Part shown: positions 43 to 43,900 of the stretch, in pieces | How the letters are laid out: each line of letters starts with the position of its first letter | How positions within the stretch are numbered: position 1 is the first letter of the stretch | Virus record (IMG/VR): IMGVR_UViG_3300044695_006747 | Coordinates: 1-64,000 of that record | Length of the DNA stretch: 64,000 bases | Strand: one strand, 5' to 3' | From: a virus | Translations under genes and position numbers: made by a program | Notes under the pieces: generated by a model | Told to the model about the DNA's origin: nothing | Database searches by the model: none | The model's input: the letters and a program-made list of their open reading frames with translations, nothing else

Positions 43-70
43 ACTATACAGCGTATAAGCCCGCTGTCAA
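43..70 (-). promoter_or_regulatory. sigma70-type promoter TTGACA-16-TATAGT
   Basis: Minus-strand hexamers with 16-bp spacer; target lies off the window edge. Confidence 0.6.
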
Positions 71-74
71 CCCC

Positions 75-499
75 ACGCTGCATAACAGCCGTAGGTTTAT
101 CGTAATGGCTTATCCTAATCTAGTCCCAGGCATGGACCCACGAAAGTTTATGACTAGACAGGCTCCTTACTGCAACTTTCCCAGTGTGACGATTCTTTAA
201 CATCTCTTGGCGAGTTCTCTCGTCTAGTCTTTGTATTGTAAATGCGGCGGGATTTTACCCACACTTCCCTCTGGGGGTCTAACGAACGATGATGGTAGTA
301 CTCCCTCTCACCGTCGGCTGCTCAACGCTTAACCTACGCATTATGTTTTAAGGGACGGATGGATTCGTTGATGCTATGGCGTCACAGGCATCTGCCTCAG
401 CCCGCGCTCTCAACTTGACCATCTACTTCACTACCGTTTACCGGGAGTTGCTCACGCAACCTCGCAGTCCCTTTTGATTTGTCAATGATCGCTTCGAAC
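75..499 (-). ncRNA. Candidate structured ncRNA
   Basis: No ORF over about 25 aa follows the promoter at 506-533. Several helices: AAGGGAC/GTCCCTT, GTTGC-GTGA-GCAAC (GNRA loop), CGTAGGTT/AACCTACG, GACTAGAC/GTCTAGTC. Confidence 0.35.
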
Positions 500-505
500 T
501 CATGT

Positions 506-533
506 ATTCTACAATCTATTATCGGCTTGTCAA
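506..533 (-). promoter_or_regulatory. sigma70-type promoter TTGACA-16-TAGAAT
   Basis: Consensus hexamers, CCGATA in spacer, AT tract upstream. Confidence 0.8.
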
Positions 534-556
534 GAAAAAAAATCCAGAAAAAAAGT

Positions 557-600
557 CTGCCATTTTGGCAGAAATCGCGGCCCCTCTGCCATTTCGGCAG
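557..600. repeat. Palindrome pair 1 (CTGCCATTTTGGCAG-N14-CTGCCATTTCGGCAG)
   Basis: Direct reading; spacer AAATCGCGGCCCCT. Confidence 0.95.
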
Positions 601-612
601 GCGGGGTTTCTT

Positions 613-1101
613 TTAGGCTTCTACCTCATCATCAGCAAAAAAGTCTGTCAAACCAAAATCATTCCAAATAGCAATAGGAATCATATCCTTATTAGTATAT
701 TCGATATAGTTATCAAAACCATTATCATAAATACCACAAAAAGCCATACCCGGCTCAAAATAAGAAGCCTTTACATTATAGCCTAACTCTACCAGTTTTT
801 CATACAAACCAGTAGGAGGAGCCCAAGCACTATCGAACGTGGTACTAACTTGATTACCAACCCGTGTAGCCTTCAATCCATGCCATTCTTCCCTATCTGT
901 ACCAATATCAGCCCCAATATCCCACTTGGTTCCCCAGTTATTCACACAAAAATCATACCATTTTCCATTGTCATAATAATCTTCTGGCATAGGAATAAAC
1001 TCATTGCAAACCTTGCCAGCATTGTATGCTCGCTCAAAACGATCCACCATAGCGGGATCAGCGTGTTCAACGGTCAACTTGTTCAAGCACCAGTTGGGCA
1101 T
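613..1101 (-). CDS. YubB/DUF1281-type ferredoxin-like domain protein
   Basis: MPNWC N-terminus, WYDFCVNNWGTKWD, FDSAWAPP and Y-x-EPG motifs typical of this family; GGAAG upstream. Confidence 0.7.
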   Translation of the reverse strand: MPNWCLNKLTVEHADPAMVDRFERAYNAGKVCNEFIPMPEDYYDNGKWYDFCVNNWGTKWDIGADIGTDREEWHGLKATRVGNQVSTTFDSAWAPPTGLYEKLVELGYNVKASYFEPGMAFCGIYDNGFDNYIEYTNKDMIPIAIWNDFGLTDFFADDEVEA

Positions 1102-1112
1102 TTTTTCTTCCT

Positions 1113-1292
1113 TTAGTTTACACTAGGACGGGGCAACGGACGATCCACAAACAGCATAACGGTTTCCGCAATCTTGTCAATACCACTAGCAATCGTTTCG
1201 TATTGTTCTTCAGTATCCATACCGCTCATGCTGGTACTAATCACACAACAAGCAAACGTTTCCAAAATCTTAGCCAACTCGTCTCGTGTCAT
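1113..1292 (-). CDS. Hypothetical protein, 59 aa (MTRDELAKILETF...)
   Basis: Hand-translated; GGAG RBS; promoter at 1313-1340. Confidence 0.6.
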   Translation of the reverse strand: MTRDELAKILETFACCVISTSMSGMDTEEQYETIASGIDKIAETVMLFVDRPLPRPSVN

Positions 1293-1312
1293 TTTTGTTC
1301 TCCTGTGCTACG

Positions 1313-1340
1313 ATTCTACACTAATGTTATCGGTTGTCAA
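1313..1340 (-). promoter_or_regulatory. sigma70-type promoter TTGACA-16-TAGAAT
   Basis: Consensus hexamers, CCGATA in spacer. Confidence 0.8.
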
Positions 1341-1816
1341 GCCACCATAGCAATAGTTTTTCTGTGGTAGATTGTGGTGATGATATCCTGATTTTCCGCA
1401 TAGAACTTACGAGTTTTCATACTAGATTTGATCTGATCTTTAGGATACTTACAAATATACTCATAAGCATCCCTTACATGATCTTGTGACCAAAATCGGT
1501 CAACCAAATCCCCACACCGTACAGAAAACAGTATATCCACAAAACCCCGCTTATCCAGCACAATAAACAGAAAACGAATTTCTCTTTCTTCCCTGCTCAA
1601 ATCATAATACTTGCTAGGGTCAAGCCACTGTAGATCGGCCTGTTTCTTGCACTCTACCAAACAACCCAGCATATCATTACGATAATCGTACAACTTATGG
1701 CTAGAACGCTCCCATCCGTCAACCCTACTTAGAATAGAAGAAAGAATATTTTCCTTCCCCCCATAACCCTTCAGATTAGCCCTTGACAGGTTGTAAATTT
1801 GTTTTGCGGTGAGCAT
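1337..1816 (-). CDS. Hypothetical protein (likely leaderless)
   Basis: 159-aa ORF; ATG 6 nt downstream of the -10 box. Confidence 0.65.
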   Translation of the reverse strand: MLTAKQIYNLSRANLKGYGGKENILSSILSRVDGWERSSHKLYDYRNDMLGCLVECKKQADLQWLDPSKYYDLSREEREIRFLFIVLDKRGFVDILFSVRCGDLVDRFWSQDHVRDAYEYICKYPKDQIKSSMKTRKFYAENQDIITTIYHRKTIAMVA

Positions 1817-1822
1817 GATTAG

Positions 1823-1850
1823 AGTTTACATCTAAAAGATTTTTTGTCAA
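1823..1850 (-). promoter_or_regulatory. sigma70-type promoter TTGACA-16-TAAACT
   Basis: Hexamers with the same 16-bp spacer. Confidence 0.65.
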
Positions 1851-1856
1851 CAAATC

Positions 1857-1896
1857 TCGCTGACAACACCCATACCGCCCAAATCCGAAGGATTAG
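1857..1896. repeat. Class B upstream element, copy 1
   Basis: GCTGAC-N16-AAATCCGAAGGATTAG; aligns with 3496-3535 and 5155-5194. Confidence 0.7.
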
Positions 1897-1905
1897 CAGA
1901 AACAG

Positions 1906-1977
1906 CAGCCCCGTGGAGAATCGAACTCCAGTCTCTAGGATGAAAGCCTAGTATACTAACCACTATACGACGGGGCC
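1906..1977 (-). tRNA. tRNA-Glu (anticodon TTC), CCA not encoded
   Basis: Acceptor GGCCCCG/CGGGGCT, D-loop AGTGGTTAG, anticodon stem CTAGG/CCTAG with loop CT-TTC-AT, T arm TGGAG-TTCGATT-CTCCA, discriminator G. Confidence 0.93.
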
Positions 1978-1980
1978 AGA

Positions 1981-2136
1981 CTAACCAACCATTTTCTCAA
2001 TCCAAATATAACTACCATACTTATCCTGAGCCTTACGCATAGCATCGATTTCGCTCAGAGCAACAACATAACCAACAAATCGATTGTGTTGAAAAACACG
2101 CCACGAATAACCAGCATAACAGTTTGTAGTAATCAT
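1981..2136 (-). CDS. Hypothetical protein, 51 aa (MITTNCYAGYSW...), likely leaderless
   Basis: Hand-translated; ATG 6 nt from the -10 box; stop 3 nt before the tRNA. Confidence 0.6.
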   Translation of the reverse strand: MITTNCYAGYSWRVFQHNRFVGYVVALSEIDAMRKAQDKYGSYIWIEKMVG

Positions 2137-2142
2137 ACGTTT

Positions 2143-2170
2143 ATTCTAACAGTTGTTATCGGCTTGTCAA
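2143..2170 (-). promoter_or_regulatory. sigma70-type promoter TTGACA-16-TAGAAT
   Basis: Consensus hexamers, CCGATA in spacer. Confidence 0.8.
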
Positions 2171-2183
2171 GAGGAGAACTTTA

Positions 2184-2227
2184 TTGCCATTTTGGCAGAA
2201 ACCGCGGCCGGCCTGCCATTTTGGCAG
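2184..2227. repeat. Palindrome pair 2
   Basis: TTGCCATTTTGGCAG-AAACCGCGGCCGGC-CTGCCATTTTGGCAG. Confidence 0.95.
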
Positions 2228-2245
2228 AGCCTTAGCACAACCCCC

Positions 2246-2653
2246 TCAAAAGAGGAGGCTGGCCAAGCCGGTCTTGAAAGCAACCCCACCCAAGAGGGGA
2301 CGACGCACGTTGCGTGTACGCTCTGCGTAGAAGTTGCGAATCTTACCATCGGGCGTTTGGGCAGTCACAAGATGACGGCTACGCTCAAAGTTAGGATCAT
2401 CCTTACGATAGCGACTCTTGCTATTCAGGCGAGAAATGTAATCGTCAGAAAAACGATGCACTTCCAAAACCTTAGCCATGAATCGCTCAGGCAAACCCGT
2501 AACAGGCTGAACATATTCGAAGTTATAAACACTGCCAATCTTAGCATTCGTAAGCGTATCACGAAGACCACGATAGATATGAAACAGGCTGAAAGCCACA
2601 AGGCCAGCAACCACACCACCAGCAAACACAGCAAACATCGTAAAATCGTTCAT
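2246..2653 (-). CDS. Hypothetical protein with N-terminal membrane anchor
   Basis: Start moved to MNDFTMFAVF (AAGGA upstream, promoter 2694-2721); hydrophobic N-terminal segment. Confidence 0.65.
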   Translation of the reverse strand: MNDFTMFAVFAGGVVAGLVAFSLFHIYRGLRDTLTNAKIGSVYNFEYVQPVTGLPERFMAKVLEVHRFSDDYISRLNSKSRYRKDDPNFERSRHLVTAQTPDGKIRNFYAERTRNVRRPLLGGVAFKTGLASLLF

Positions 2654-2693
2654 AAGAACCCTTTCGTTTAGAAATCCTTCACTCAATAAAACT

Positions 2694-2721
2694 AGCATAC
2701 CACAAGAAAACTGTTTGTCAA
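2694..2721 (-). promoter_or_regulatory. sigma70-type promoter TTGACA-16-TATGCT
   Basis: Hexamers with 16-bp spacer. Confidence 0.65.
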
Positions 2722-3059
2722 GCCTGAACTGTTGCAGGCACCACACTTTCCATAAGATTCTTGGCAATCTCGTGGAAGTTGACAGCACAAACGCTAGCGT
2801 TCAGCAGATCGGCCCAAACCGTTCCGGTCACGTTAGCGTCATTCAAAATCCGTTCCATTTGATCGTTATGCTTCTCTTTGAGTTTTTCGGCCAGAATACA
2901 AGCAGCATCCTCGACCTTGCTAAAATGAACCTGTTCGGATGCTTGGTGATTATAAACTTCCTCAGCAAGCCGACGCCAGTACGCACTTTTCGATTCCGTG
3001 TTGTCGATCCACAACTGAACAGCCCACGTTTCGTAGTTAGAGTAGCCGTTGTAAGTCAT
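2718..3059 (-). CDS. Conserved phage protein of unknown function (YNGxxNYETWxxxLW motif)
   Basis: MTYNGYSNYETWAVQLWIDN start resembles a motif common in small phage proteins; AGGA RBS. Confidence 0.7.
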   Translation of the reverse strand: MTYNGYSNYETWAVQLWIDNTESKSAYWRRLAEEVYNHQASEQVHFSKVEDAACILAEKLKEKHNDQMERILNDANVTGTVWADLLNASVCAVNFHEIAKNLMESVVPATVQA

Positions 3060-3086
3060 TGTTGGTTCCTTTGGGGTGATGCTTCA

Positions 3087-3114
3087 AAGATACCATATAG
3101 ATCGACACTGTCAA
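3087..3114 (-). promoter_or_regulatory. sigma70-type promoter TTGACA-16-TATCTT
   Basis: Hexamers with 16-bp spacer, TCGATC in spacer. Confidence 0.6.
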
Positions 3115-3137
3115 ACAGAAAGTTGAAAAAATATTTG

Positions 3138-3181
3138 CTGCCATTTTGGCAGAAATCGCGGCCCGCCTGTCATTTTGGCAG
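3138..3181. repeat. Palindrome pair 3
   Basis: CTGCCATTTTGGCAG-AAATCGCGGCCCGC-CTGTCATTTTGGCAG. Confidence 0.95.
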
Positions 3182-3427
3182 ATAGGCTATTTCCTGACCG
3201 TTTTCGATCATAGCAGCATAAATAGCGATACGCTTATCTTTCTCTCGCTTCTCGATCTGATGATCGGTTTCTACACTGTCGCGTGAGTCACACTTATGTT
3301 CCAGATCGGCCAGCGAAACACCATCGGTGCGATTATCGCGGAAATCTTCAGGAAGCCAATCGTTTGGAACAACAATAACATCCTTGATCAGTCGCTCAAA
3401 CTCGGCCATCAGTTCGTAACCGTTCAT
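3170..3427 (-). CDS. Hypothetical protein
   Basis: 85-aa ORF, GAGGAG RBS; stop codon lies inside the palindrome. Confidence 0.65.
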   Translation of the reverse strand: MNGYELMAEFERLIKDVIVVPNDWLPEDFRDNRTDGVSLADLEHKCDSRDSVETDHQIEKREKDKRIAIYAAMIENGQEIAYLPK

Positions 3428-3450
3428 CTTTTTCTCCTCTTGATGAATAG

Positions 3451-3478
3451 ATTATACATTTAGAATCGGCATTGTCAA
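3451..3478 (-). promoter_or_regulatory. sigma70-type promoter TTGACA-16-TATAAT
   Basis: Perfect hexamers. Confidence 0.85.
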
Positions 3479-3495
3479 CAAAAGAAAACGGTTTT

Positions 3496-3535
3496 TCGCT
3501 GACTACAGCCACTCTCGCCAAATCCGTAGGATTAG
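3496..3535. repeat. Class B upstream element, copy 2
   Basis: GCTGAC-N16-AAATCCGTAGGATTAG. Confidence 0.7.
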
Positions 3536-3541
3536 GTAGGA

Positions 3542-3715
3542 CTAGTCGTAGTCCCTCATCGCTCGCCGGTTCTGGTCGCCGCGAGTTCGGCCACGCTTGG
3601 GGCGATTGTCGTGAGAGCCGCTACCGCTAATATGGTCGGAGTGTCCGCGACTCACTTCCCAAATCGGCTTCACATTCAGCCGAATCGAATCGTACTTTTT
3701 ATTTCGCTTGCTCAT
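3542..3715 (-). CDS. Small basic His/Arg-rich protein, 57 aa
   Basis: Hand-translated MSKRNKKYDS...GHSDHISGSGSHDNRPKRGRTRG; directly behind promoter 3725-3752. Confidence 0.6.
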   Translation of the reverse strand: MSKRNKKYDSIRLNVKPIWEVSRGHSDHISGSGSHDNRPKRGRTRGDQNRRAMRDYD

Positions 3716-3724
3716 GATGCCCTG

Positions 3725-3752
3725 ATTCTACACTAGTATCGGCCAGTGTCAA
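3725..3752 (-). promoter_or_regulatory. sigma70-type promoter TTGACA-16-TAGAAT
   Basis: Consensus hexamers, CCGATA in spacer. Confidence 0.8.
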
Positions 3753-3776
3753 TAGAAAAATCCAAAAATATTTTTC

Positions 3777-3820
3777 CTGTCATTTTGGCAGAAATCGCGG
3801 CCCCGCTGCCATTTTGGCAG
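3777..3820. repeat. Palindrome pair 4
   Basis: CTGTCATTTTGGCAG-AAATCGCGGCCCCG-CTGCCATTTTGGCAG. Confidence 0.95.
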
Positions 3821-3833
3821 ATCGGGGTTGTTT

Positions 3834-4166
3834 TCAGTAATCCTCGTTATAATCGCCGTAGAAACCGTAGTCCTCATCGGTTCCCCAGCCAGCACTGGCG
3901 AGGCCGGATTCGTGGTCGCCATCCATGCTGTCATAACCATCATCATCATAACCCTCATCTTCATTCATTTGATCACGGATTTCATCCAGCTCGTTTTCCG
4001 GCAAACCCCAAAAATCATTGTGATCATCATAGTTCACATCATCACGGTCGTGCGACTCATCATCAATCCACGGATAAATGGTACGCTCGGCCATCTCGTC
4101 GAAACGGTCAAAAGAATCCTGGCTCATCGTGTTCTCCTCATCGTGAAGGGGATCGGGGTGACTCAT
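3834..4166 (-). CDS. Highly acidic hypothetical protein
   Basis: About one third D/E, no Lys; C-terminal DGDHESGLASAGWGTDEDYG. Confidence 0.65.
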   Translation of the reverse strand: MSHPDPLHDEENTMSQDSFDRFDEMAERTIYPWIDDESHDRDDVNYDDHNDFWGLPENELDEIRDQMNEDEGYDDDGYDSMDGDHESGLASAGWGTDEDYGFYGDYNEDY

Positions 4167-4187
4167 GACTTATCCTTTCTACACTAA

Positions 4188-4388
4188 TCAAAACCGGTCG
4201 TCAAGGGGAGCAAACTCGTCAACAATGCCGACCACTTCGGCCCAATCCCAAAAGTCGGTCAGGTTGCTGGGATCATCAATCGGCTCGACCATCGGCTCGA
4301 CCGTACCATCGTCGGCCAGTTGAGAGAGCAAAGCGTTGATCGTGTCGGTATCATCGAGCAGACCAGCCATTCGCGGAAACTGATTCAT
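4188..4388 (-). CDS. Acidic hypothetical protein (MNQFPRMAG...)
   Basis: Start moved to the ATG with GGAG RBS behind promoter 4418-4445. Confidence 0.55.
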   Translation of the reverse strand: MNQFPRMAGLLDDTDTINALLSQLADDGTVEPMVEPIDDPSNLTDFWDWAEVVGIVDEFAPLDDRF

Positions 4389-4417
4389 CGTCGTTTCTCC
4401 GTTGGGGTGATGCTTTG

Positions 4418-4445
4418 ATTCTACAGTTAGATATCGGCTTGTCAA
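4418..4445 (-). promoter_or_regulatory. sigma70-type promoter TTGACA-16-TAGAAT
   Basis: Consensus hexamers, CCGATA in spacer. Confidence 0.8.
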
Positions 4446-4478
4446 GCAAAGAAAATGTAGTCAAAAAAAAGATTTTTT

Positions 4479-4494
4479 CGGCACACCGTTTGCT
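4479..4494 (+). promoter_or_regulatory. sigma54 -24/-12 box CGGCACACCGTTTGCT
   Basis: Matches YGGCAC-N5-TTGCW; 3 bp before a palindrome pair. Confidence 0.65.
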
Positions 4495-4497
4495 AGC

Positions 4498-4541
4498 CTG
4501 CCATTTTGGCAGCCGGGCCGCGGAAACTGCCATTTTGGCAG
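4498..4541. repeat. Palindrome pair 5
   Basis: Two exact CTGCCATTTTGGCAG; spacer CCGGGCCGCGGAAA. Confidence 0.95.
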
Positions 4542-4551
4542 CCCTTGATAT

Positions 4552-4629
4552 TTAGTGGATTAGGTAAACTGTGAGGCATCCAAAAATAAATGAACCACCG
4601 AAAATAATAATAAGATTATACTTAGTCAT
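4552..4629 (-). CDS. Small membrane peptide, 25 aa (MTKYNLIIIFGGSFIFGCLTVYLIH)
   Basis: Hand-translated; start overlaps the stop of the upstream peptide; AGGA RBS. Confidence 0.45.
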   Translation of the reverse strand: MTKYNLIIIFGGSFIFGCLTVYLIH

Positions 4630-4729
4630 TTTTATTCCTTATAGGAAAAACAAGATCACAAACAACGTAACTAGCAATAACGCCGCAAGCAAATCCCACA
4701 CCTATTTGTACCCAGTTCATATCGGCCAT
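4622..4729 (-). CDS. Small membrane peptide, 35 aa (MADMNWVQIGVGFACGVIASYVVCDLVF...)
   Basis: Hand-translated; hydrophobic core; purine-rich leader. Confidence 0.45.
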   Translation of the reverse strand: MADMNWVQIGVGFACGVIASYVVCDLVFPIRNKND

Positions 4730-4747
4730 CCCTTGCCCCTTTCTTTA

Positions 4748-5050
4748 TTAGGAGTTCACCAAAATATTATCTTCAAACTCTGTACCATCCTGCAAAAACC
4801 ATTCATACTTTCGCTGGTAAACTTTCACAGGAGAATACTGATTGATTCGCTTTTTCGTGGTATGGGTATGATATCCGCCACTATTCAACTTTACAAGCCC
4901 ATTCGGATAGAATCGTACAACGGCCGTACCATGCAACCGAATAGAAACACTGTTATCGTACTCGATTTCCGCATAGGTATTATTACCAACTTTACGAGTC
5001 TTACGATTCGTCTTACCGTGAACCAGAGTAACCGCTTCAGTATAGTTCAT
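4748..5050 (-). CDS. Conserved hypothetical phage protein (MNYTEAV...SGGYHTHTTKKRINQY)
   Basis: Start moved to the ATG with GGAG RBS. Confidence 0.65.
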   Translation of the reverse strand: MNYTEAVTLVHGKTNRKTRKVGNNTYAEIEYDNSVSIRLHGTAVVRFYPNGLVKLNSGGYHTHTTKKRINQYSPVKVYQRKYEWFLQDGTEFEDNILVNS

Positions 5051-5088
5051 TTTTCTACTCCAATGAAAGCAACCAAACCACACTAAGA

Positions 5089-5117
5089 ATCATACTACCC
5101 GCAATCCACACTGTCAA
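5089..5117 (-). promoter_or_regulatory. sigma70-type promoter TTGACA-17-TATGAT
   Basis: Hexamers; only intergenic copy with a 17-bp spacer. Confidence 0.55.
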
Positions 5118-5154
5118 TACCAATCCGATCAAGATTTCCATTAGGCCCTCATTT

Positions 5155-5194
5155 TGGCTGACTATAGCCCACCTTGCCAATCCGATAGGATCGG
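5155..5194. repeat. Class B upstream element, copy 3 (degenerate)
   Basis: GCTGAC-N16-AATCCGATAGGATCGG. Confidence 0.55.
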
Positions 5195-5224
5195 ATAAGA
5201 CAAATCAACCCCCACAACAGGGGA

Positions 5225-5440
5225 CTATGAAACCCCCATCCAAGCGGCATTTTCCAGACAGTAAATATAAAACATATCATTCAGTATTTCCCGATAGTTA
5301 CTATCGGTCAACCGACGACGATCCCTAGTAGACTCACATTCAGCATATAGCCTACCATCTGGCGTGCCGATAAACGTCACGTTATGGCTTTCGCTTCCCC
5401 AAATCTGCTTCAACGCATCACGAAACTTGTTGATTTCCAT
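5225..5440 (-). CDS. Hypothetical protein (MEINKFRDAL...)
   Basis: Start moved to the ATG with AGGAG RBS behind promoter 5472-5499. Confidence 0.6.
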   Translation of the reverse strand: MEINKFRDALKQIWGSESHNVTFIGTPDGRLYAECESTRDRRRLTDSNYREILNDMFYIYCLENAAWMGVS

Positions 5441-5471
5441 TTTTCTTTCTCCTGCTACTAGGTATATCGGT

Positions 5472-5499
5472 ATTCTACCAGCCATCCCTTGAATGTCAA
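5472..5499 (-). promoter_or_regulatory. sigma70-type promoter TTGACA-16-TAGAAT
   Basis: TTGACATTCAAG subtype; CCGATA just downstream of -10. Confidence 0.8.
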
Positions 5500-5532
5500 A
5501 CAAAAAAAATAGCAGAATAATATTTTGTGGTT

Positions 5533-5548
5533 TGGTACGGATTTTGCT
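5533..5548 (+). promoter_or_regulatory. sigma54 -24/-12 box TGGTACGGATTTTGCT
   Basis: Matches consensus with a C-to-T variant; 5 bp before a palindrome pair. Confidence 0.65.
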
Positions 5549-5553
5549 GGTGG

Positions 5554-5597
5554 CTGCCATTTTGGCAGAAATCGCGCGCCGCCTGCCATTTTGGCAG
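5554..5597. repeat. Palindrome pair 6
   Basis: Two exact copies; spacer AAATCGCGCGCCGC. Confidence 0.95.
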
Positions 5598-5609
5598 TAT
5601 TACTTTTCC

Positions 5610-5837
5610 TTATGATGCCTTACCAGCGTATGTAATATAATCTTCCCTATTATTATAACCATGATATCTATATGTAGCACAAGTCATAAACTGTATTACA
5701 TCTTTCATCTTATCAAAAGTGTAACAAGCATGAGTAATCTTACTACGCAGAACATACTTTACAATCTGGCCATCAAAATGCAGATTATAGTTATTCTCTT
5801 CTGCTTTGTTCTCAATATCAACGATTCTATATCTCAT
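5610..5837 (-). CDS. Hypothetical protein (MRYRIVDIENK...), AT-rich
   Basis: AGGA RBS at the end of the upstream ORF. Confidence 0.5.
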   Translation of the reverse strand: MRYRIVDIENKAEENNYNLHFDGQIVKYVLRSKITHACYTFDKMKDVIQFMTCATYRYHGYNNREDYITYAGKAS

Positions 5838-5850
5838 GTTACTATTCCTT

Positions 5851-6024
5851 TCAGCCAAACTGCTCATACTCTTCATCACTCAAATACGGCTCATTTGGAC
5901 GATAGCAGTTGTAACTACCATAATGGTCAGCATTAGTCTCATAATCACACTCTCGCCCACAACGCGAACAAGTAGGCTCATAATCAACAATATCAACCCT
6001 AACACCACAACAGTTACTATTCAT
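5851..6024 (-). CDS. Small Cys-rich (zinc-ribbon-like) protein, 57 aa
   Basis: Hand-translated MNSNCCG...CSRCGRECD; GAGG RBS. Confidence 0.6.
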   Translation of the reverse strand: MNSNCCGVRVDIVDYEPTCSRCGRECDYETNADHYGSYNCYRPNEPYLSDEEYEQFG

Positions 6025-6026
6025 AC

Positions 6027-6218
6027 TCAAACCTCTGCGTAATCGGTCAACTGATCCTGATTAAACAGTCCGAACTGACCATTTTCATCCTTAACAAAAA
6101 ACATAACAAGCGGCTTACCATTCTCGATAATAACATCGAAACTAGTAACAGTAACCTTGCGACCCGAAAGAGTCTTAGCGGTTATGGTCATGACGCTGGT
6201 AATATCGTTGGTAATCAT
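6027..6218 (-). CDS. Hypothetical protein
   Basis: 63-aa ORF abutting its neighbours. Confidence 0.55.
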   Translation of the reverse strand: MITNDITSVMTITAKTLSGRKVTVTSFDVIIENGKPLVMFFVKDENGQFGLFNQDQLTDYAEV

Positions 6219-6227
6219 TTTTATACC

Positions 6228-6299
6228 TTAGAGCGAGAGATAAACGGCCGAAACCACACTGAACAGCATAACAAATGCAAGAGAGATTGTCAAGACCAT
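6228..6299 (-). CDS. Small membrane peptide, 23 aa (MVLTISLAFVMLFSVVSAVYLSL)
   Basis: Hand-translated; GAGGAG RBS; fills the gap exactly. Confidence 0.4.
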   Translation of the reverse strand: MVLTISLAFVMLFSVVSAVYLSL

Positions 6300-6308
6300 T
6301 TTTACTCC

Positions 6309-6548
6309 TCAAACCCCCACACTAGGGGGACTACTCTTGAAGTTGAGTCGAGATTGCAAATGTAACTCGTCAAGAACGAAACCGACCGCACGATCCCTGC
6401 TACCACGGAAAACGTAGTATTTCATACGAATATCGAATAGCGAAACCGTGCCATCCGTTTCGGGATGCACAGTAAAACCGGCACGATAAGCGTAACCATT
6501 CAAGCGACCGGCGACAGTTGAGCGGGAAGGGATTTTCTTGACTTTCAT
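6309..6548 (-). CDS. Hypothetical protein
   Basis: 79-aa ORF, polypurine leader, promoter 6570-6597. Confidence 0.65.
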   Translation of the reverse strand: MKVKKIPSRSTVAGRLNGYAYRAGFTVHPETDGTVSLFDIRMKYYVFRGSRDRAVGFVLDELHLQSRLNFKSSPPSVGV

Positions 6549-6569
6549 TTTCTTTCTTTCTTTCCTACT

Positions 6570-6597
6570 ATTCTACCAAACTTTTCTATCTAATCAA
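6570..6597 (-). promoter_or_regulatory. sigma70-type promoter TTGATT-16-TAGAAT
   Basis: Hexamers with 16-bp spacer. Confidence 0.65.
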
Positions 6598-6614
6598 CCC
6601 CCACTATTGTGGGA

Positions 6615-6818
6615 CTACCATTGATTTCGACGATACTCGTCGTACTCCTCCTGCTCCTCACGACGCTGGCGAGCGGTAACAGGAGGGCCATAGCCCTCGT
6701 TGTATGCGTCAACAGCCGCATCGTAAGCCTCACCGCCACCATCATCACAATGCTCACCGCAACGGGGGCAAATATCCTGAAAATGAACCGGAACACCACA
6801 GCAATCACTAATAATCAT
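6615..6818 (-). CDS. Small Cys-rich (zinc-ribbon-like) protein
   Basis: SDCCG...CPRCGEHCD; promoter 6856-6883. Confidence 0.65.
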   Translation of the reverse strand: MIISDCCGVPVHFQDICPRCGEHCDDGGGEAYDAAVDAYNEGYGPPVTARQRREEQEEYDEYRRNQW

Positions 6819-6855
6819 CTTTCTCTCTCTTTCTTTCTCTTTCTTCTATATCGAC

Positions 6856-6883
6856 ATTATACCAAACACAACTTGAATGTCAA
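6856..6883 (-). promoter_or_regulatory. sigma70-type promoter TTGACA-16-TATAAT
   Basis: Perfect hexamers; TTGACATTCAAG subtype. Confidence 0.85.
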
Positions 6884-6915
6884 ACAAAAAAAATCGGTTG
6901 AAAAAAAGTTTTTTG

Positions 6916-6974
6916 TGGCACGGTATTTGCTAGTAGCAAACCGCGTACCAAAAAAGTTTGGCACAAGATTTGCT
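6916..6974. promoter_or_regulatory. Cluster of three sigma54 boxes: 6916-6931 (+), 6935-6950 (-), 6959-6974 (+)
   Basis: TGGCACGGTATTTGCT, TGGTACGCGGTTTGCT (minus strand) and TGGCACAAGATTTGCT. Confidence 0.7.
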
Positions 6975-6978
6975 GTGG

Positions 6979-7043
6979 CTGCCATTTTGGCAGTCGCCGC
7001 GCGGTTTCTGCCATTTTGGCAGTCAAGGCTGCCAAGTTGACAG
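6979..7043. repeat. Palindrome pair 7 plus degenerate third copy
   Basis: Exact copies at 6979-6993 and 7008-7022, spacer inverted (TCGCCGCGCGGTTT); CTGCCAAGTTGACAG at 7029-7043. Confidence 0.9.
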
Positions 7044-7062
7044 AACCCCTCTCGTGGGTGGG

Positions 7063-7383
7063 TCACCCCTCCCAAGCGAACGGGCTAATCTCCTCCCCCA
7101 TAGTGAGGGTGGCCTCATATTGTGACCGCAAAGCCTCCACCCTCTCCCGACTTCCCGGCTTGCCCACCTTCACAATCATCGTATCCTCACCCAAACCCAT
7201 CCGAGGGTCAACCTTTTCGGCCTTGACGTTGACGCTATCCCGCATGGCCGAGCGATTGAACTTCAACACCTTTTCGCTGCGAATCATACCGCCATCGGCA
7301 GTAGACTTGTCGCAGGGAATGGCGATACCGCTGAAGCAAAGGTAGGCTTGACGCTTGGCCTTTTCGATGATCGGGAAACTCAT
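7063..7383 (-). CDS. Hypothetical protein
   Basis: 106-aa ORF on the coding strand of the region; AGGA upstream. Confidence 0.6.
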   Translation of the reverse strand: MSFPIIEKAKRQAYLCFSGIAIPCDKSTADGGMIRSEKVLKFNRSAMRDSVNVKAEKVDPRMGLGEDTMIVKVGKPGSRERVEALRSQYEATLTMGEEISPFAWEG

Positions 7384-7448
7384 GATTCTTTTCCTATGGT
7401 GAAGTGAAAAACCGAATGTACCAAACTAGCCTAGACTGCTCAACCCCC

Positions 7449-7700
7449 TCACACGAGGCAGGGAGCCTCGGTGAACCAGACCTTGCAATCTTCAAGGTAG
7501 ATGCTCTTGTGGATCACGGGCATCTCGCCCACACTATACATACGATCATTTTCCAGACTATCGGCAAACCGAATCGTGACCAGCGTACCGCGAGCATATG
7601 CTGCAACCTTGACGATTTCGCCAGCATACGTCTTGCCGTTATTCTTCTCACACTCGAAACCGAAACCAACCTGAACACTTCCAAACTTCATCATCTTCAT
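7449..7700 (-). CDS. Small beta-rich (SH3/KOW-like) protein
   Basis: GAGGAG RBS; similar to 8243-8479. Confidence 0.6.
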   Translation of the reverse strand: MKMMKFGSVQVGFGFECEKNNGKTYAGEIVKVAAYARGTLVTIRFADSLENDRMYSVGEMPVIHKSIYLEDCKVWFTEAPCLV

Positions 7701-7721
7701 CTCTCCTCTTGTGATACTCTG

Positions 7722-7749
7722 ATTCTACATTAGATATCGTCGATTGCAA
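7722..7749 (-). promoter_or_regulatory. sigma70-type promoter TTGCAA-16-TAGAAT
   Basis: Hexamers with 16-bp spacer. Confidence 0.7.
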
Positions 7750-7812
7750 GAAAAAAAAATAGGAAAAAATCCGTTGGTGAAAACTTCATCGCTGTCATAT
7801 TGGCATGCCATT

Positions 7813-7828
7813 TGGCACGAGATTTGCT
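7813..7828 (+). promoter_or_regulatory. sigma54 -24/-12 box TGGCACGAGATTTGCT
   Basis: Perfect TGGCACG-N4-TTGCT; 4 bp before a palindrome. Confidence 0.75.
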
Positions 7829-7832
7829 GATG

Positions 7833-7900
7833 CTGCCATTTTGGCAGATTTCGCGCGATTTCTGCCATTTTGGCAGTCGCCTTGTCTGCCATTGTGGCAG
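7833..7900. repeat. Palindrome pair 8 plus third copy
   Basis: Exact copies at 7833-7847 and 7862-7876; CTGCCATTGTGGCAG at 7886-7900; a degenerate copy also at 7792-7806. Confidence 0.95.
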
Positions 7901-7963
7901 GTTCTAACCGCCCGGTTTGGGTGGTACAACCCACCCTTATGGGGGATAGGATAATACCCCCTC

Positions 7964-8164
7964 TCAAGAGCGGGGGTAAGTGTATCCAACGTAAACTAGG
8001 CTAATCTTTTCCCTCTCAGGAAACTTCTCAGCGGACAGATAACTCATAGCCTGAGTTTCATTGTCCGCACGAACACAACCGCGGCTTTCGCCATTGTAGA
8101 AAACATTCCAAGTACGAAACTTGCGAATCTTGGGAAGCGAACGGATGAAATCGTTAACGTGCAT
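7964..8164 (-). CDS. Hypothetical protein
   Basis: 66-aa ORF with polypurine leader and promoter 8205-8232. Confidence 0.6.
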   Translation of the reverse strand: MHVNDFIRSLPKIRKFRTWNVFYNGESRGCVRADNETQAMSYLSAEKFPEREKISLVYVGYTYPRS

Positions 8165-8204
8165 CTTTCTTTCTCTCTTTCTTTCTCTTACTCTTTATAT
8201 CGGT

Positions 8205-8232
8205 ATTCTACAATCCGATACTTGAATGTCAA
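8205..8232 (-). promoter_or_regulatory. sigma70-type promoter TTGACA-16-TAGAAT
   Basis: TTGACATTCAAG subtype; CCGATA downstream of -10. Confidence 0.8.
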
Positions 8233-8242
8233 CTAAAAAAAA

Positions 8243-8479
8243 TCACGATTCCAGAATCGTGTAATCGGTAGCATTGTCGTAAAACGAACGATGCTGGCCA
8301 TTGGCCAAACGCACGACGATCAAATCGTCATTAGCACCATGTTTGATACTAACAACCGTTCCAGCATAATCGTTACCAGAATCGCTTTTCCACGAAACCA
8401 TATCGCCCACCACGAAACGGACGCTAGATTCTACAGTTTTCATTTTCAACTTTCCCTTTTTGGTCATCATCGTAATCAT
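8243..8479 (-). CDS. Small beta-rich (SH3/KOW-like) protein, possibly leaderless
   Basis: ATG 6 nt from the -10 box; similar to 7449-7700. Confidence 0.6.
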   Translation of the reverse strand: MITMMTKKGKLKMKTVESSVRFVVGDMVSWKSDSGNDYAGTVVSIKHGANDDLIVVRLANGQHRSFYDNATDYTILES

Positions 8480-8485
8480 GCCATC

Positions 8486-8513
8486 ATTCTACAATATGGT
8501 ATCGGAATGTCAA
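8486..8513 (-). promoter_or_regulatory. sigma70-type promoter TTGACA-16-TAGAAT (outermost of the array)
   Basis: Consensus hexamers, CCGATA in spacer. Confidence 0.8.
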
Positions 8514-8565
8514 CTAAAAAAAATCACTCAAAATGGATTTGGTGAAAACTTCCCCGATCATGATT

Positions 8566-8581
8566 TGGCACAGGGTTTGCT
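8566..8581 (+). promoter_or_regulatory. sigma54 -24/-12 box TGGCACAGGGTTTGCT
   Basis: Matches consensus; followed only by a GGCAG half-site. Confidence 0.6.
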
Positions 8582-8698
8582 ACGGCAGTTCCCCACCTAT
8601 GGGGGGGTTTTTTTGTTTTCCTACCAATGGGGGGTATTTCCCCCAAAAACGCGGGGTGATGTAAACACAATACCGACCACCGCAATGAATTGGCCAGT

Positions 8699-9002: not shown

Positions 9003-9173
9003 ATGAAAAATGAACCAAATATTCCCGACATAGTAATTGACTCAATATTGACCACAAAAGCCCTAGGATCTGTACAAGATATATCAAAAGAGCTACAATT
9101 ACCAGACGGTAAAAATCTAGAAGAATTATTAAATGACCAAAAAGAAGAAGAAGACACAAAAGATACTAAATAA
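9003..9173 (+). CDS. Hypothetical acidic protein, 56 aa
   Basis: Hand-translated; AAGGAG RBS; overlaps the next gene by 41 nt. Confidence 0.45.
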   Translation: MKNEPNIPDIVIDSILTTKALGSVQDISKELQLPDGKNLEELLNDQKEEEDTKDTK

Positions 9174-9774
9174 TGGAGTAACAGAAGAAGAATTTTTAGA
9201 AGTTTTAAATAATATATCAAAAAGATTGGTCCATAAATTTAGATTCGGATATCACGATATTGATGATATGAAACAACAAGCCGCCATATTCGCTATGGAA
9301 GGTTTGGAAAAATTTGATAACACTAGGCCTCTAGAAAACTTTCTTTGGACCCACGTTCGAAATCGATTGTTTAACTACAAAAGAAACAACTACCAAAGGC
9401 CCGATAAACCCTGCTTAAGTTGTCCTTTTTACGACTTGTTATACAAAGAATCTAACAACCAGTGCTCAAAATACAAAAATAAAGATGACTGTGAATTATA
9501 TTTCTCATGGTCTGAACGAAATAATAGCAAAAAAAATATTATGACTTTTCAGAGCATAGAAAATACTTTTGAAAAAGAAGACCACAAAGATCCACTAGAT
9601 ATTATTAAAAACAAAGAAATTATTAGTTATCTTGATAATAATATTGTTAAACCAGAATTTAGAGAAAGCTATTTAAGATTAAAGAATGGATTAAAACTAA
9701 ACAAACCTCTATTGGAAAAATTAAAAAATCACATTATGGAATTGATGAAAGACTTTAATCATGACAGAGAATAG
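9133..9774 (+). CDS. Phage RNA polymerase sigma factor (sigma70 region 2-like) with Cys-rich insert
   Basis: DDMKQQAAIFAMEGLEKFDNTRPLENFLWTHVRNRLFNYKR is a region 2 pattern; CLSC...C...C follows. Confidence 0.7.
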   Translation: MTKKKKKTQKILNNGVTEEEFLEVLNNISKRLVHKFRFGYHDIDDMKQQAAIFAMEGLEKFDNTRPLENFLWTHVRNRLFNYKRNNYQRPDKPCLSCPFYDLLYKESNNQCSKYKNKDDCELYFSWSERNNSKKNIMTFQSIENTFEKEDHKDPLDIIKNKEIISYLDNNIVKPEFRESYLRLKNGLKLNKPLLEKLKNHIMELMKDFNHDRE

Positions 9775-40900: not shown

Positions 40901-43900
40901 ACCGCTCTTGGAACATTCTTTAAAAGAAATGGAGTAATGCTACCGTCTTCAAGTATAATGACCCTGGGAGATCAGGTAGGAAATCTTGGCACAGCAGAGA
41001 AAAAGGCCAGAGCACTATATGATATGGTTAAAAAATATGGTAGTGTTGATTTCTTTGATGACGACGCTGCAAATATTGATGCTGCAAAAATGGTCCGAGG
41101 AGTAACCGCTAAAAAAGTTGCTTTAAAAAATAGTGGTGGATATATTCAAAGACTTATGGCTGGTTCATTTGCTGAAGAACCTAGTATATCTGAAATAGCA
41201 CAAATAGTTACACAGTACGCATATCGAGATCCGTCTATTAATTCTGACCCAGCATTACAACAAGCTGTTCTTGCCACAGTAGCCAAAAGAAATAGAACTT
41301 CTGCAAATTTAGCTACTGCTACCAAATTAGCTGGACTAATATCGACAGGCTCGTTAAATCCAAATTTAGCTAGACAAATTCTATCTTCTAGTAACACAAT
41401 TGTACCCAGTGGCCCTAGAGGCAAACCTACTGTACAAGCTCTTTCTTTGCAAGCACTAAAACCTGGAGAAGAAACTAAATTTACTAGAACCATAGACGGT
41501 GAAGAAATAGATATTGTTAGAGGATCTCCGTCAGCAGCTTTGTCAAAACGCATGACATCAGCAATAGACCGAGGTATTCAAGTAGCAATTAAGGGAACTA
41601 TAGAAGAAGCTTTAAGTGATGTTATTTCTAGAGATCCTAGTAAACGGCAACAATTAATTGATTTAGGAGTTAAGTTTAATAAAAGTGGTAAAGCAATAGC
41701 TCCAAAATCTATGATAGATATGGCTATGAAACATGGCCAAATAAATGAATTAAGAGGTAATATATTTGAAAGAACCTTGATGGGACTCGGAGCAACACCC
41801 GGACCAAAACTTCCTGGTAAAGCAGCTCCAGTTGATGCTTTGAGAATAGGAGATATTGTTGCAGACATCATGTCTCAGGGGCCGTCCAAAATATCTTCTG
41901 ATTTACCATCTGAAATCAAAGCCTCTGTACGCAAAACACGACCAAGTGAAGCAACTCCAGATATAAGTAAACGAGGACTAGTTAATCAGATACTCAGATT
42001 CAAGAGATTGCCTGGAGTACAATTTAAAGCAAAAGGAGGTGGTATTGATGGAATAAGATCAGAGCAAGCTAAATCTGCTATTTTAGGTAAACAACTAAGC
42101 GGCGCGGACATGATAAAAGCTGCTAGACGAGCTGGTTATAATATCGAAGAACTAGATAATGGTTTAGTTCAACTATCTCGTAATAATAAAATTATGCATA
42201 CTCTTAGTAGACCAGAAGCATCAAAACTATTAGGAAGTATATCTACAGGATATAATAAAGGAGGTCCAGCAGGATCAGATACAGTGCCAGCACTATTAAC
42301 TCCTGGCGAATTTGTAATCAATAAGAAAGCTGCTGCTAGACTAGGATCAAGCAGATTACATAGACTGAATAGAGCGGATAAAATTAGCGGTTTTAATACC
42401 GGAGGAGAAGTAGGACGCGTTCCAACATATTCGTCTGGTGGTGATGTGCAAAGATTTTTCTTTGGAGGAGGCGCACGAGCAAGACCAGGGATGCAAGCCA
42501 CAGCAGAGAATCTGATGGTTCCCGGAGGAACAATGAATCAATTAAGAGAAATTATAAATGCTCTTAATGAAATGGGACTTGCGTCGTCACGATCTGCAGA
42601 CCTGTTAAGAAGAAGTGGTAGAGTTAGCGTCCAAGCTGCCAATGATGCTTATGAGGCTGATATTCTAAGATTAAGAGTGGCTGGTGCCCCTATGGACACT
42701 ATATTACAAGCCGAAGCCAGACTTGCTAATATGAGACAACAGGGAGCTCAGCAAGTTAGAGCACAAAGACAATTATCGGGAGTAGGAGGAGCTCAATTAC
42801 AAGTAGTAGAAGACGTTGCTCAGCAAAATATTCAAAGAATGTTTGCAAGAGCTCAAGCTGCTGGTGTTGATCTTAATGAAACTCAAAGAGCGCGAATAGA
42901 AGACATGGGCTACAGAAGAGCTTCTCAGGCTGGTGGTCTTTCAACAGCGCAGACAGCGGGTCTTAGTGGTAATGATTTAAGACAATATATCAATGCTGCT
43001 ATGGGTGATCCTAGAACATTTGAACAAATGAATAGACAGTTTGAGGCTAGAAGACGAGCAGAGCTGAATAATCAATATATTGCCGAAAATAGATTTGGTG
43101 GTGATCGCAGAAGAATATTGCAACAAGCTAGTAGAGATGCTGCTGAAGAAGCTAGAATACGAAGACAAACACTAAATCAAACAAGAGGAGCGGCTGGCCC
43201 AGGAGCGAGCACCGGACAAAGGGTTCAGCAAGGAATGTTTGGTGCTAGTTTTGCTATTCCGATGTTAGCTCAAATGCTTGCGGGAGATCCATCGAGAGCA
43301 GCTACTGCTGGTGGAGCAGCTCAATCTGCTGCTATACAAGGAGCAGGAAATACTGTTGCTATGGGAACAATGATAGCTAGTATGTTTCCTCCTGGCCTTG
43401 GTCAAGGTCTAGCCCTAGCTGCTACAGCGGCAGCTTCTGTTGCTCAGGCATTTATCGATGCTAGAAATGCAACAATAGAATTTGAGAAAAATCTAGCAGC
43501 TAAAAAAGTAGAGATGGCGTTGGAAGATACCGGTAGATTATTTGAAAAATTAGCTAAAGATGTAAAAGATATAGATGTGCAAAATTCGATTGGACAAAAA
43601 CTAATAGAAGCAAGCTCAGCTTCGCAAAGAGCAATTGAGATACAGGCCACCACAGCGAAAGCATTTTGGGTCAATATGTTTGATGCATTTGGAGGGGGTG
43701 ATAGAACACAAAGAGCAGAATCTTCACAAAGAAGTCAAATATTAGATAGGTTTGGAACATCGGCATATTTGGAAACAACAACACTCGGACAGGGATTTCT
43801 AGGAGGACGAGGTACCGCTCAAAATAGAGCTAACGAAGCAAGACTGTCTTACACTTCACAAATGATCCCAGAACAATCTAGAGAAATATCTAAACAGTTT

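Follow-up and report, generated by a model that had tools for sequence, protein, structure and literature searches.

Sites for host signalling regulators are known from several phages, in which multiple promoter-associated copies of the Spo0A, LexA or CtrA site have been described (PMC9437464), and 15-bp dyads with an A/T centre, often in tandem, are familiar as the upstream activating sequences of sigma54 promoters, e.g. those of NtrC at glnAp2 and of the enhancer-binding protein (EBP) regulons of Desulfovibrio (PMC4641369). Myxococcus HsfA at lonD, an NtrC-family regulator of a heat-shock gene, and other atypical EBPs act together with sigma70 (PMC9109919, PMC6158489), giving an EBP-type precedent for activation of the sigma70 polymerase, and Pseudomonas phage YuA uses sigma54-type signals, the accessible part of that report giving one sigma54-like promoter and mentioning no enhancer array or heat-shock activator (bioRxiv 10.1101/2023.10.13.562163). 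In T4-like phages, PeSL cassettes (PMC2839356, PMC4122927) place a repeated upstream element, an AT-rich tract and a sigma70 early promoter between small ORFans, and are gained and lost at these repeats. Here we describe, in a viral stretch of 64,000 nucleotides (positions 1-64,000 of the 186,823-bp contig IMGVR_UViG_3300044695_006747; hereafter the window, to which all coordinates refer unless marked as genome positions), an array of tandem pairs of a 15-bp palindrome which shares features with each of these systems, and which, judged by sequence comparison, probably consists of sites for a host heat-shock activator of the NtrC family that is apparently undescribed.

All eight pairs listed by an earlier reading of the window from its letters alone (the sequence-only reading) are present, each consisting of two 15-bp palindromes set 29 bp apart, centre to centre, by a 14-bp GC spacer that contains CGCG, and the central triplet is TTT on the + strand in all 16 palindromes. 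A leftward sigma70-type -35 box lies 13-95 bp from every pair, with the pair upstream, as that reading had placed them: pair 1 (557..600) is 23 bp from the -35 box at 533, pair 2 (2184..2227) 13 bp from that at 2170, pair 3 (3138..3181) 23 bp from that at 3114, pair 4 (3777..3820) 24 bp from that at 3752, pair 5 (4498..4541) 52 bp from that at 4445, pair 6 (5554..5597) 54 bp from that at 5499 and pair 7, together with an extra palindrome at 7029 (6979..7043), 95 bp from that at 6883. Pair 8 (7833-7876) belongs to a cluster (7792..7900) with the extra palindromes at 7792 and 7886, and faces a weaker promoter at 7749. As a correction to that reading, four of the 16 sites (586, 2184, 3167 and 3777) have one mismatch. 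With up to two mismatches allowed, the window contains 20 palindrome matches against 1.29 expected, and the reported absence of the motif from the late region stands apart from one two-mismatch match at 43419, which is at chance level. Over the whole genome the motif is far from evenly spread, with 31 sites in a 15.6-kb array (genome 178,987 to 7,900) and two chance-level matches elsewhere; six further pairs (genome 178987, 180197, 182597, 183906, 184573 and 185696) lie in its continuation past the origin of the circular assembly, bringing the total to 14. The contig ends overlap by 126 bp, which was taken as assembly closure and not as a terminal repeat. The array is oriented leftward and its G+C content is above that of the rest of the genome.

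The proposal that the pairs form a protein-binding DNA site rather than an RNA structure is upheld by comparison with related phages. The pair pattern was found in 88 stretches of viral contigs from one phage family (terminases 54-87% identical, 9 of 10 tested records matching), where 419 distances between sites equal 29 bp and the next most frequent value occurs 17 times. Because these relatives keep both the sequence and the distance between sites, and compensatory changes are almost absent (3 of 3204 arm positions), the element is best regarded as a DNA site and not an RNA hairpin; its spacer is predicted to fold less stably than shuffles (z about +0.55), and the GC core of the spacer, symmetric about the dyad, occurs both ways round (26 vs 22). 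Folding energies of -11 to -22 kcal/mol are predicted for the 44-nt pair, and two of the eight pairs (557 and 3138, with a U tract) pass a terminator scan of the transcribed strand. With only these two terminator-like, the U content behind the pairs showing no preference for either strand, and neither covariation nor selection for folding in evidence, a general role as terminator was rejected. Literature of partial coverage yielded no description of the palindrome motif.

The same palindrome is found at cellular chaperone promoters. A search of 185,579 prokaryote genomes (GTDB) with the strict pair pattern gave 24 matches, including 7 in Planctomycetota and 5 in Gemmatimonadota, and all seven of the former and three of the latter lie upstream of a sigma54-like box leading into dnaK or an hsp20-like gene; matches outside these two phyla were tandem-repeat-like or attributable to chance and were discarded. 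As with known sigma54 upstream activating sequences, the cellular copies stand 50-155 bp upstream of -24/-12 boxes, here those of dnaK, groE and hsp20 in Planctomycetota and Gemmatimonadota, and a gene for a protein with receiver, AAA and Fis-type helix-turn-helix (HTH) domains is nearby. Arrays of 3-7 palindrome copies occur at Gemmatimonadota dnaK and hsp20 promoters (loci L102, L104, L112 and L118), and the putative regulon therefore spans two phyla. When the spacing was relaxed, matches were obtained in 32 genomes out of the 401 sampled from Planctomycetota, compared with 17 for a reversed control, and in this sample 19 of 29 loci precede chaperone genes (dnaK 10, groEL 4, hsp20-like 3, groES 1, clpB/C 1), the gene calls having been made mostly from N-terminal sequence. 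In several planctomycetes (loci L117, L122 and L142) the gene that follows a pair and sigma54 box encodes a small, free-standing receiver domain, which may provide feedback within the regulon.

A candidate host lineage, read as Planctomycetia, is suggested by one phage gene, of the DUF1501 family, the closest copies of which (75-80% identical) lie in small genomes of 3-4 Mb within the sampled class. Five of these candidate-host genomes contain 21 near-exact matches to the palindrome, against 8 for the control, and 14 of the 21 precede dnaK (in five of five genomes), groEL (likewise five of five), groES or clpB/C; all but one of these 14 lie 75-153 bp before a sigma54 box. Among 40 further matches from the candidate-host family, a sigma54 box is located 85-153 bp downstream in 23, compared with none of the 40 on the other side, and 21 of the 23 were confirmed to lead into dnaK (11) or groEL (10). 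The candidate-host sites, of which 1-4 are recognised at chaperone genes per genome, are single and imperfect, with the dyad conserved while the flanks diverge; they are identical to the phage motif at 13-15 of 15 positions and have equal polarity, the A-tract strand facing the promoter in candidate hosts and phage alike. For Planctomycetia, a 2025 survey (PMC12316311) independently predicts an enrichment of sigma54 promoters ahead of chaperone genes, and names no activator site in its accessible part; a study of Rhodopirellula detected no regulation of the usual sigma factors and inferred another cascade (PMC2754498). Within the partial coverage of our literature search there was no description of a planctomycete heat-shock regulon, nor of its capture by a phage.

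Both gene neighbourhood and phylogeny point to an NtrC-family activator as the probable binder of the palindrome. In 10 loci from diverse planctomycetes, the site and dnaK are immediately preceded by a receiver-AAA-Fis-HTH gene; a clear ortholog (48-51% identity, well above paralogs) is encoded by the candidate hosts, and the dnaK-adjacent activators and candidate-host orthologs form one clade (99/98) with a common recognition helix. The candidate-host protein has an AAA+ domain, a GAFTGA-type loop and an HTH, its copies reading GAFTDA, which is a tolerated and functional variant of the sigma54-contacting loop (PMC4641369). Its gene is part of a conserved string, pnp - small histidine kinase - activator - mutL (L192-L195; neighbours named by sequence), in which the histidine-kinase-motif gene ahead of the activator (~260 aa) encodes a candidate partner. 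In the phage, by comparison, the queries used detected no HTH_8 above cut-off, no sigma54 domain, no activator and no chaperone. Accordingly, where the sequence-only reading had suggested, among other roles, an operator for a master early-gene switch, the chaperone-promoter match, the activator clade and the failure of these queries to find a phage binder favour the host activator, and the pairs are therefore best read as captured and strengthened enhancer sites. This likens them to the Spo0A, LexA and CtrA sites of other phages, except that the factor in this instance would be a heat-shock sigma54 EBP, and that a single early array holds all the sites, as tandem pairs in optimised form.

What such an activator might do for the phage is suggested by the promoters beside which the pairs lie. 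The leftward sigma70 promoters of the array (43..8513, - strand) are near consensus, mostly with a 16-bp spacer and an A/T-rich upstream tract, and head small open reading frames (ORFs), mostly without known function or family; a tRNA-Glu gene (1905-1977) is the sole match in an Rfam search. Distances from pair to -35 box cluster at 12-16, 22-25 and 50-54 bp, although linkers of 23-25 bp share just 43% identity (73% A+T), a pattern no more than suggestive of phasing of the pair to the promoter. The usual palindrome centres are near -67 and -96 relative to the predicted sigma70 start, i.e. ~67 and ~96 bp upstream of it. Upstream activators such as Fis and class I CRP act at such positions.

The array is probably located within a long direct terminal repeat, since zero-mismatch contigs from lake metagenome runs are ~2.3-fold deeper over it than to the right of ~8.2-8.65 kb, and since contig ends of relatives cluster there, 6 of 50 falling in a 180-bp interval, picked post hoc, that is equivalent to 8413-8593, against 0.9 expected. 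The probable right end of the repeat (8413..8656) is placed by this depth drop and cluster of contig ends. A G/C-run hairpin, a T tract and more inverted repeats (8587-8660) lie at the probable boundary and are a candidate terminator or packaging-end signal.

We considered whether host-site identity and coupling of the sigma70 early promoters to the same activator might together account for the array, an explanation that we favour, although we would place it somewhat short of an even chance. The palindrome would be the site of the receiver, AAA+ and Fis-type HTH protein that activates the planctomycete dnaK, groES/EL, hsp20 and clpB/C sigma54 promoters; the phage would have copied this host site, perfected the palindrome and doubled it at 29 bp, enabling two activator dimers to bind cooperatively. 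Such pairs, occupying the upstream slot of sigma70 early promoters on what is probably the first-entering terminal repeat, would allow the bound activator to bend the DNA and to contact or gate RNA polymerase, and early-gene output would thereby follow the level or phosphorylation of the host regulator of proteotoxic stress.

Several observations weigh against this explanation. The array promoters are near consensus and those without a pair look equally strong, leaving no evident need for an activator. The proposed binder retains its sigma54-contacting loop (GAFTGA or GAFTDA), and its action on the sigma70 polymerase is conjectural; in this it differs from HsfA, since the planctomycete protein keeps a functional-type loop and is placed at sigma54 promoters. 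The phasing derives from sites that are not independent and form approximately three clusters; without the main peak, a period of 13 bp fits equally well. The host assignment comes from DUF1501 only, no partner site at ~29 bp was found in candidate-host-family promoters (the 29-bp spacing is in use among other planctomycetes), and the pair array is present in only 3-4 of 57 family members, these having been chosen by their sigma-factor gene.

The pair-less members have a different element in the same position. Two ~25-bp inverted elements with CAA-N4-TTA cores flank a GC core, and a CCTTAC-N6-GTAAGG sequence often comes next, 0-25 bp upstream of the -35 box (examples are the upstream early regions of L311, L242, L249, L293, L295 and L275), and hybrid arrangements with one activator site occur. 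We have labelled the CAA-N4-TTA cores 'IHF-like', presuming a partial consensus. A search of the five candidate-host genomes with the pair-less module gave no strict match. Because pair-less members fill the slot with another inverted pair around a similar GC core, the upstream slot is, on this comparative evidence, a family-wide module into which one sub-lineage appears to have placed the heat-shock activator site. Literature of partial coverage contained nothing on the phage family.

The array also contains sigma54 -24/-12 boxes, six rightward and one leftward, all of them confined to it and with flanks conserved beyond the search pattern. Rightward boxes face pair 5 (4479..4494), pair 6 (5533..5548) and pair 8 (7813..7828, between the extra site at 7792 and the pair), three boxes adjoin pair 7 (6916..6974; rightward at 6916 and 6959, leftward at 6950-6935), and one without a pair lies upstream of the first early promoter at 8513 (8566..8581). 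An abutting box, on the opposite strand at a gap of at most 7 bp and mostly 3-5 bp, accompanies 21 of 169 dereplicated pairs, and because such a box faces the pair at 3-5 bp its predicted start falls inside the palindrome, as at pair 5. Unlike classical sigma54 upstream activating sequences, the phage pairs thus stand upstream of sigma70 promoters, with sigma54 boxes that are inverted and abutting; no co-oriented box was found 50-150 bp downstream of the phage pairs, the co-oriented ones lying at 13-39 bp, and no credible reading frame follows the rightward boxes. Among the 57 family members (L232-L311), most have such boxes in the early array, and all 57 downstream stretches lack them.

These boxes bring in the possibility, which we consider rather unlikely, that the pairs are decoys which titrate the host activator, with the adjacent boxes parking sigma54 polymerase in complexes that are non-productive, so as to blunt the host chaperone and protease response within minutes of infection. 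The numbers would suit such a role, there being 31 sites per array (~62 per virion if the array is the terminal repeat) against the few chaperone sites of each candidate-host genome, as would the perfect and doubled form of the phage sites compared with the single and imperfect host sites, the additional sites clustered at 7029 and 7792-7900, the start within the palindrome, and the restriction of the boxes to early arrays across the family. A pure decoy, however, would need neither the fixed polarity nor the preferred distance to the -35 box, both of which are kept. Many phages, lambda and T4 among them, need host DnaK and GroE; silencing of host chaperones could therefore be costly to a phage with no chaperone hit of its own. 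Coupling of early promoters to the activator and titration of that activator are not mutually exclusive, and a combined arrangement, in which the array and its non-productive sigma54 boxes amount to a DNA-only capture of the stress activator that both senses its state and deprives the chaperone genes of it, is possible though doubtful.

An operator for a phage-encoded repressor or activator, its likeness to the host site reflecting convergence, or ancestry without current binding by the host protein, appears improbable. Most early ORFs have no known family, leaving room for a divergent DNA-binding protein, and family members with different flanks have the GC core in common; the agreement in polarity and in almost every position with a conserved chaperone-promoter site, and the absence of a Fis-type HTH among the phage hits, speak against it. 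There is equally little to recommend the pairs as true sigma54 enhancers, from which phosphorylated activator would drive the phage boxes over 0.03-1.4 kb, antisense transcripts or roadblocks then shutting or insulating cassettes: the confinement of the boxes to the array and their conserved flanks would fit, as would the action independent of distance and orientation established for NtrC, but the abutting site overlaps the predicted start, the host geometry (75-155 bp upstream and co-directional) is not found in the phage, the rightward boxes lead into no credible frame and only a minority of pairs have an abutting box. Least tenable is a PeSL-like stem-loop acting as RNA terminator and recombination handle without protein binding, a very improbable account that the layout (stem-loop, AT-rich tract and sigma70 promoter; PMC2839356), the predicted folding, the U tracts at 557 and 3138 and the cassette deletions that terminate at pairs would suit, but which is contradicted by the near absence of compensatory change, the poorly folding spacer with its core in both orientations and the unbiased U content, and which leaves the match to host promoters unexplained.

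Cassette turnover itself does resemble that of PeSL regions, with indels between relatives that have cassette junctions. Eight distinct clean indel or rearrangement events were identified against relatives, in a region of which pair windows make up 7%. Both junctions fall at pairs in three of the eight, namely 5598-6956 (13 related loci, with pair 6 as an edge), 3186-3738 (4 loci, pair 3 as an edge) and genome 182641-183903 (1 locus); one further event runs from promoter to promoter, and the other four have at most one end at a pair. The suggestion that the pairs are recombination sites for shuffling cassettes is thus supported in part, by the three pair-to-pair events, the others ending at promoters or elsewhere, and the deletions at pairs look like a by-product of repeated homology of the PeSL type; exchange of this kind accounts for the events, and a dedicated recombinase is therefore not needed. 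The resemblance has limits, in that the PeSL element is a terminator stem-loop, whereas the element here has invariant sequence, no RNA covariation and a matching host site. Roles in partition or DNA entry, also raised by the sequence-only reading, found no specific support, although the array is probably in the terminal repeat.

Other features of the region were noted in passing. Several pair-less promoters have a second upstream element (1857-1894, 3497-3533 and 5157-5194; genome 178793, 181773 and 185538), in which a conserved TAGTCAGC-like block comes after an AATCC-N3-GGATT palindrome, and a CCGAT-like motif is common to the 16-bp spacers of many early promoters (e.g. 506-533 and 4418-4445). 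Just beyond the array, 9133-9774 encodes a protein with sigma70 region 2, just under the Pfam cut-off, that is likely a middle or late sigma factor. The DUF1501 gene (genome 149279-150523) is host-derived and has dozens of metagenome copies that are 85-98% identical, suggesting a widespread auxiliary gene. In two relatives (L228 and L229) the terminase large subunit is split by in-frame insertions, giving frames of ~1030 aa; these are probably inteins.

The analysis puts forward candidates for the regulator, and for its DNA site, in planctomycete heat-shock control; if correct, they would define a heat-shock regulon of the sigma54/NtrC family, undescribed so far, that is present in Planctomycetota and in Gemmatimonadota. 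It would also extend the eavesdropping of phages on host regulators, known for LexA, Spo0A and CtrA, to an enhancer-binding protein and to the protein-folding stress response, and, should the pairs act as decoys, would make DNA decoys an immediate tool of host takeover. For the abundant and uncultured freshwater phage family to which this virus belongs, the motif offers a signal for host prediction.

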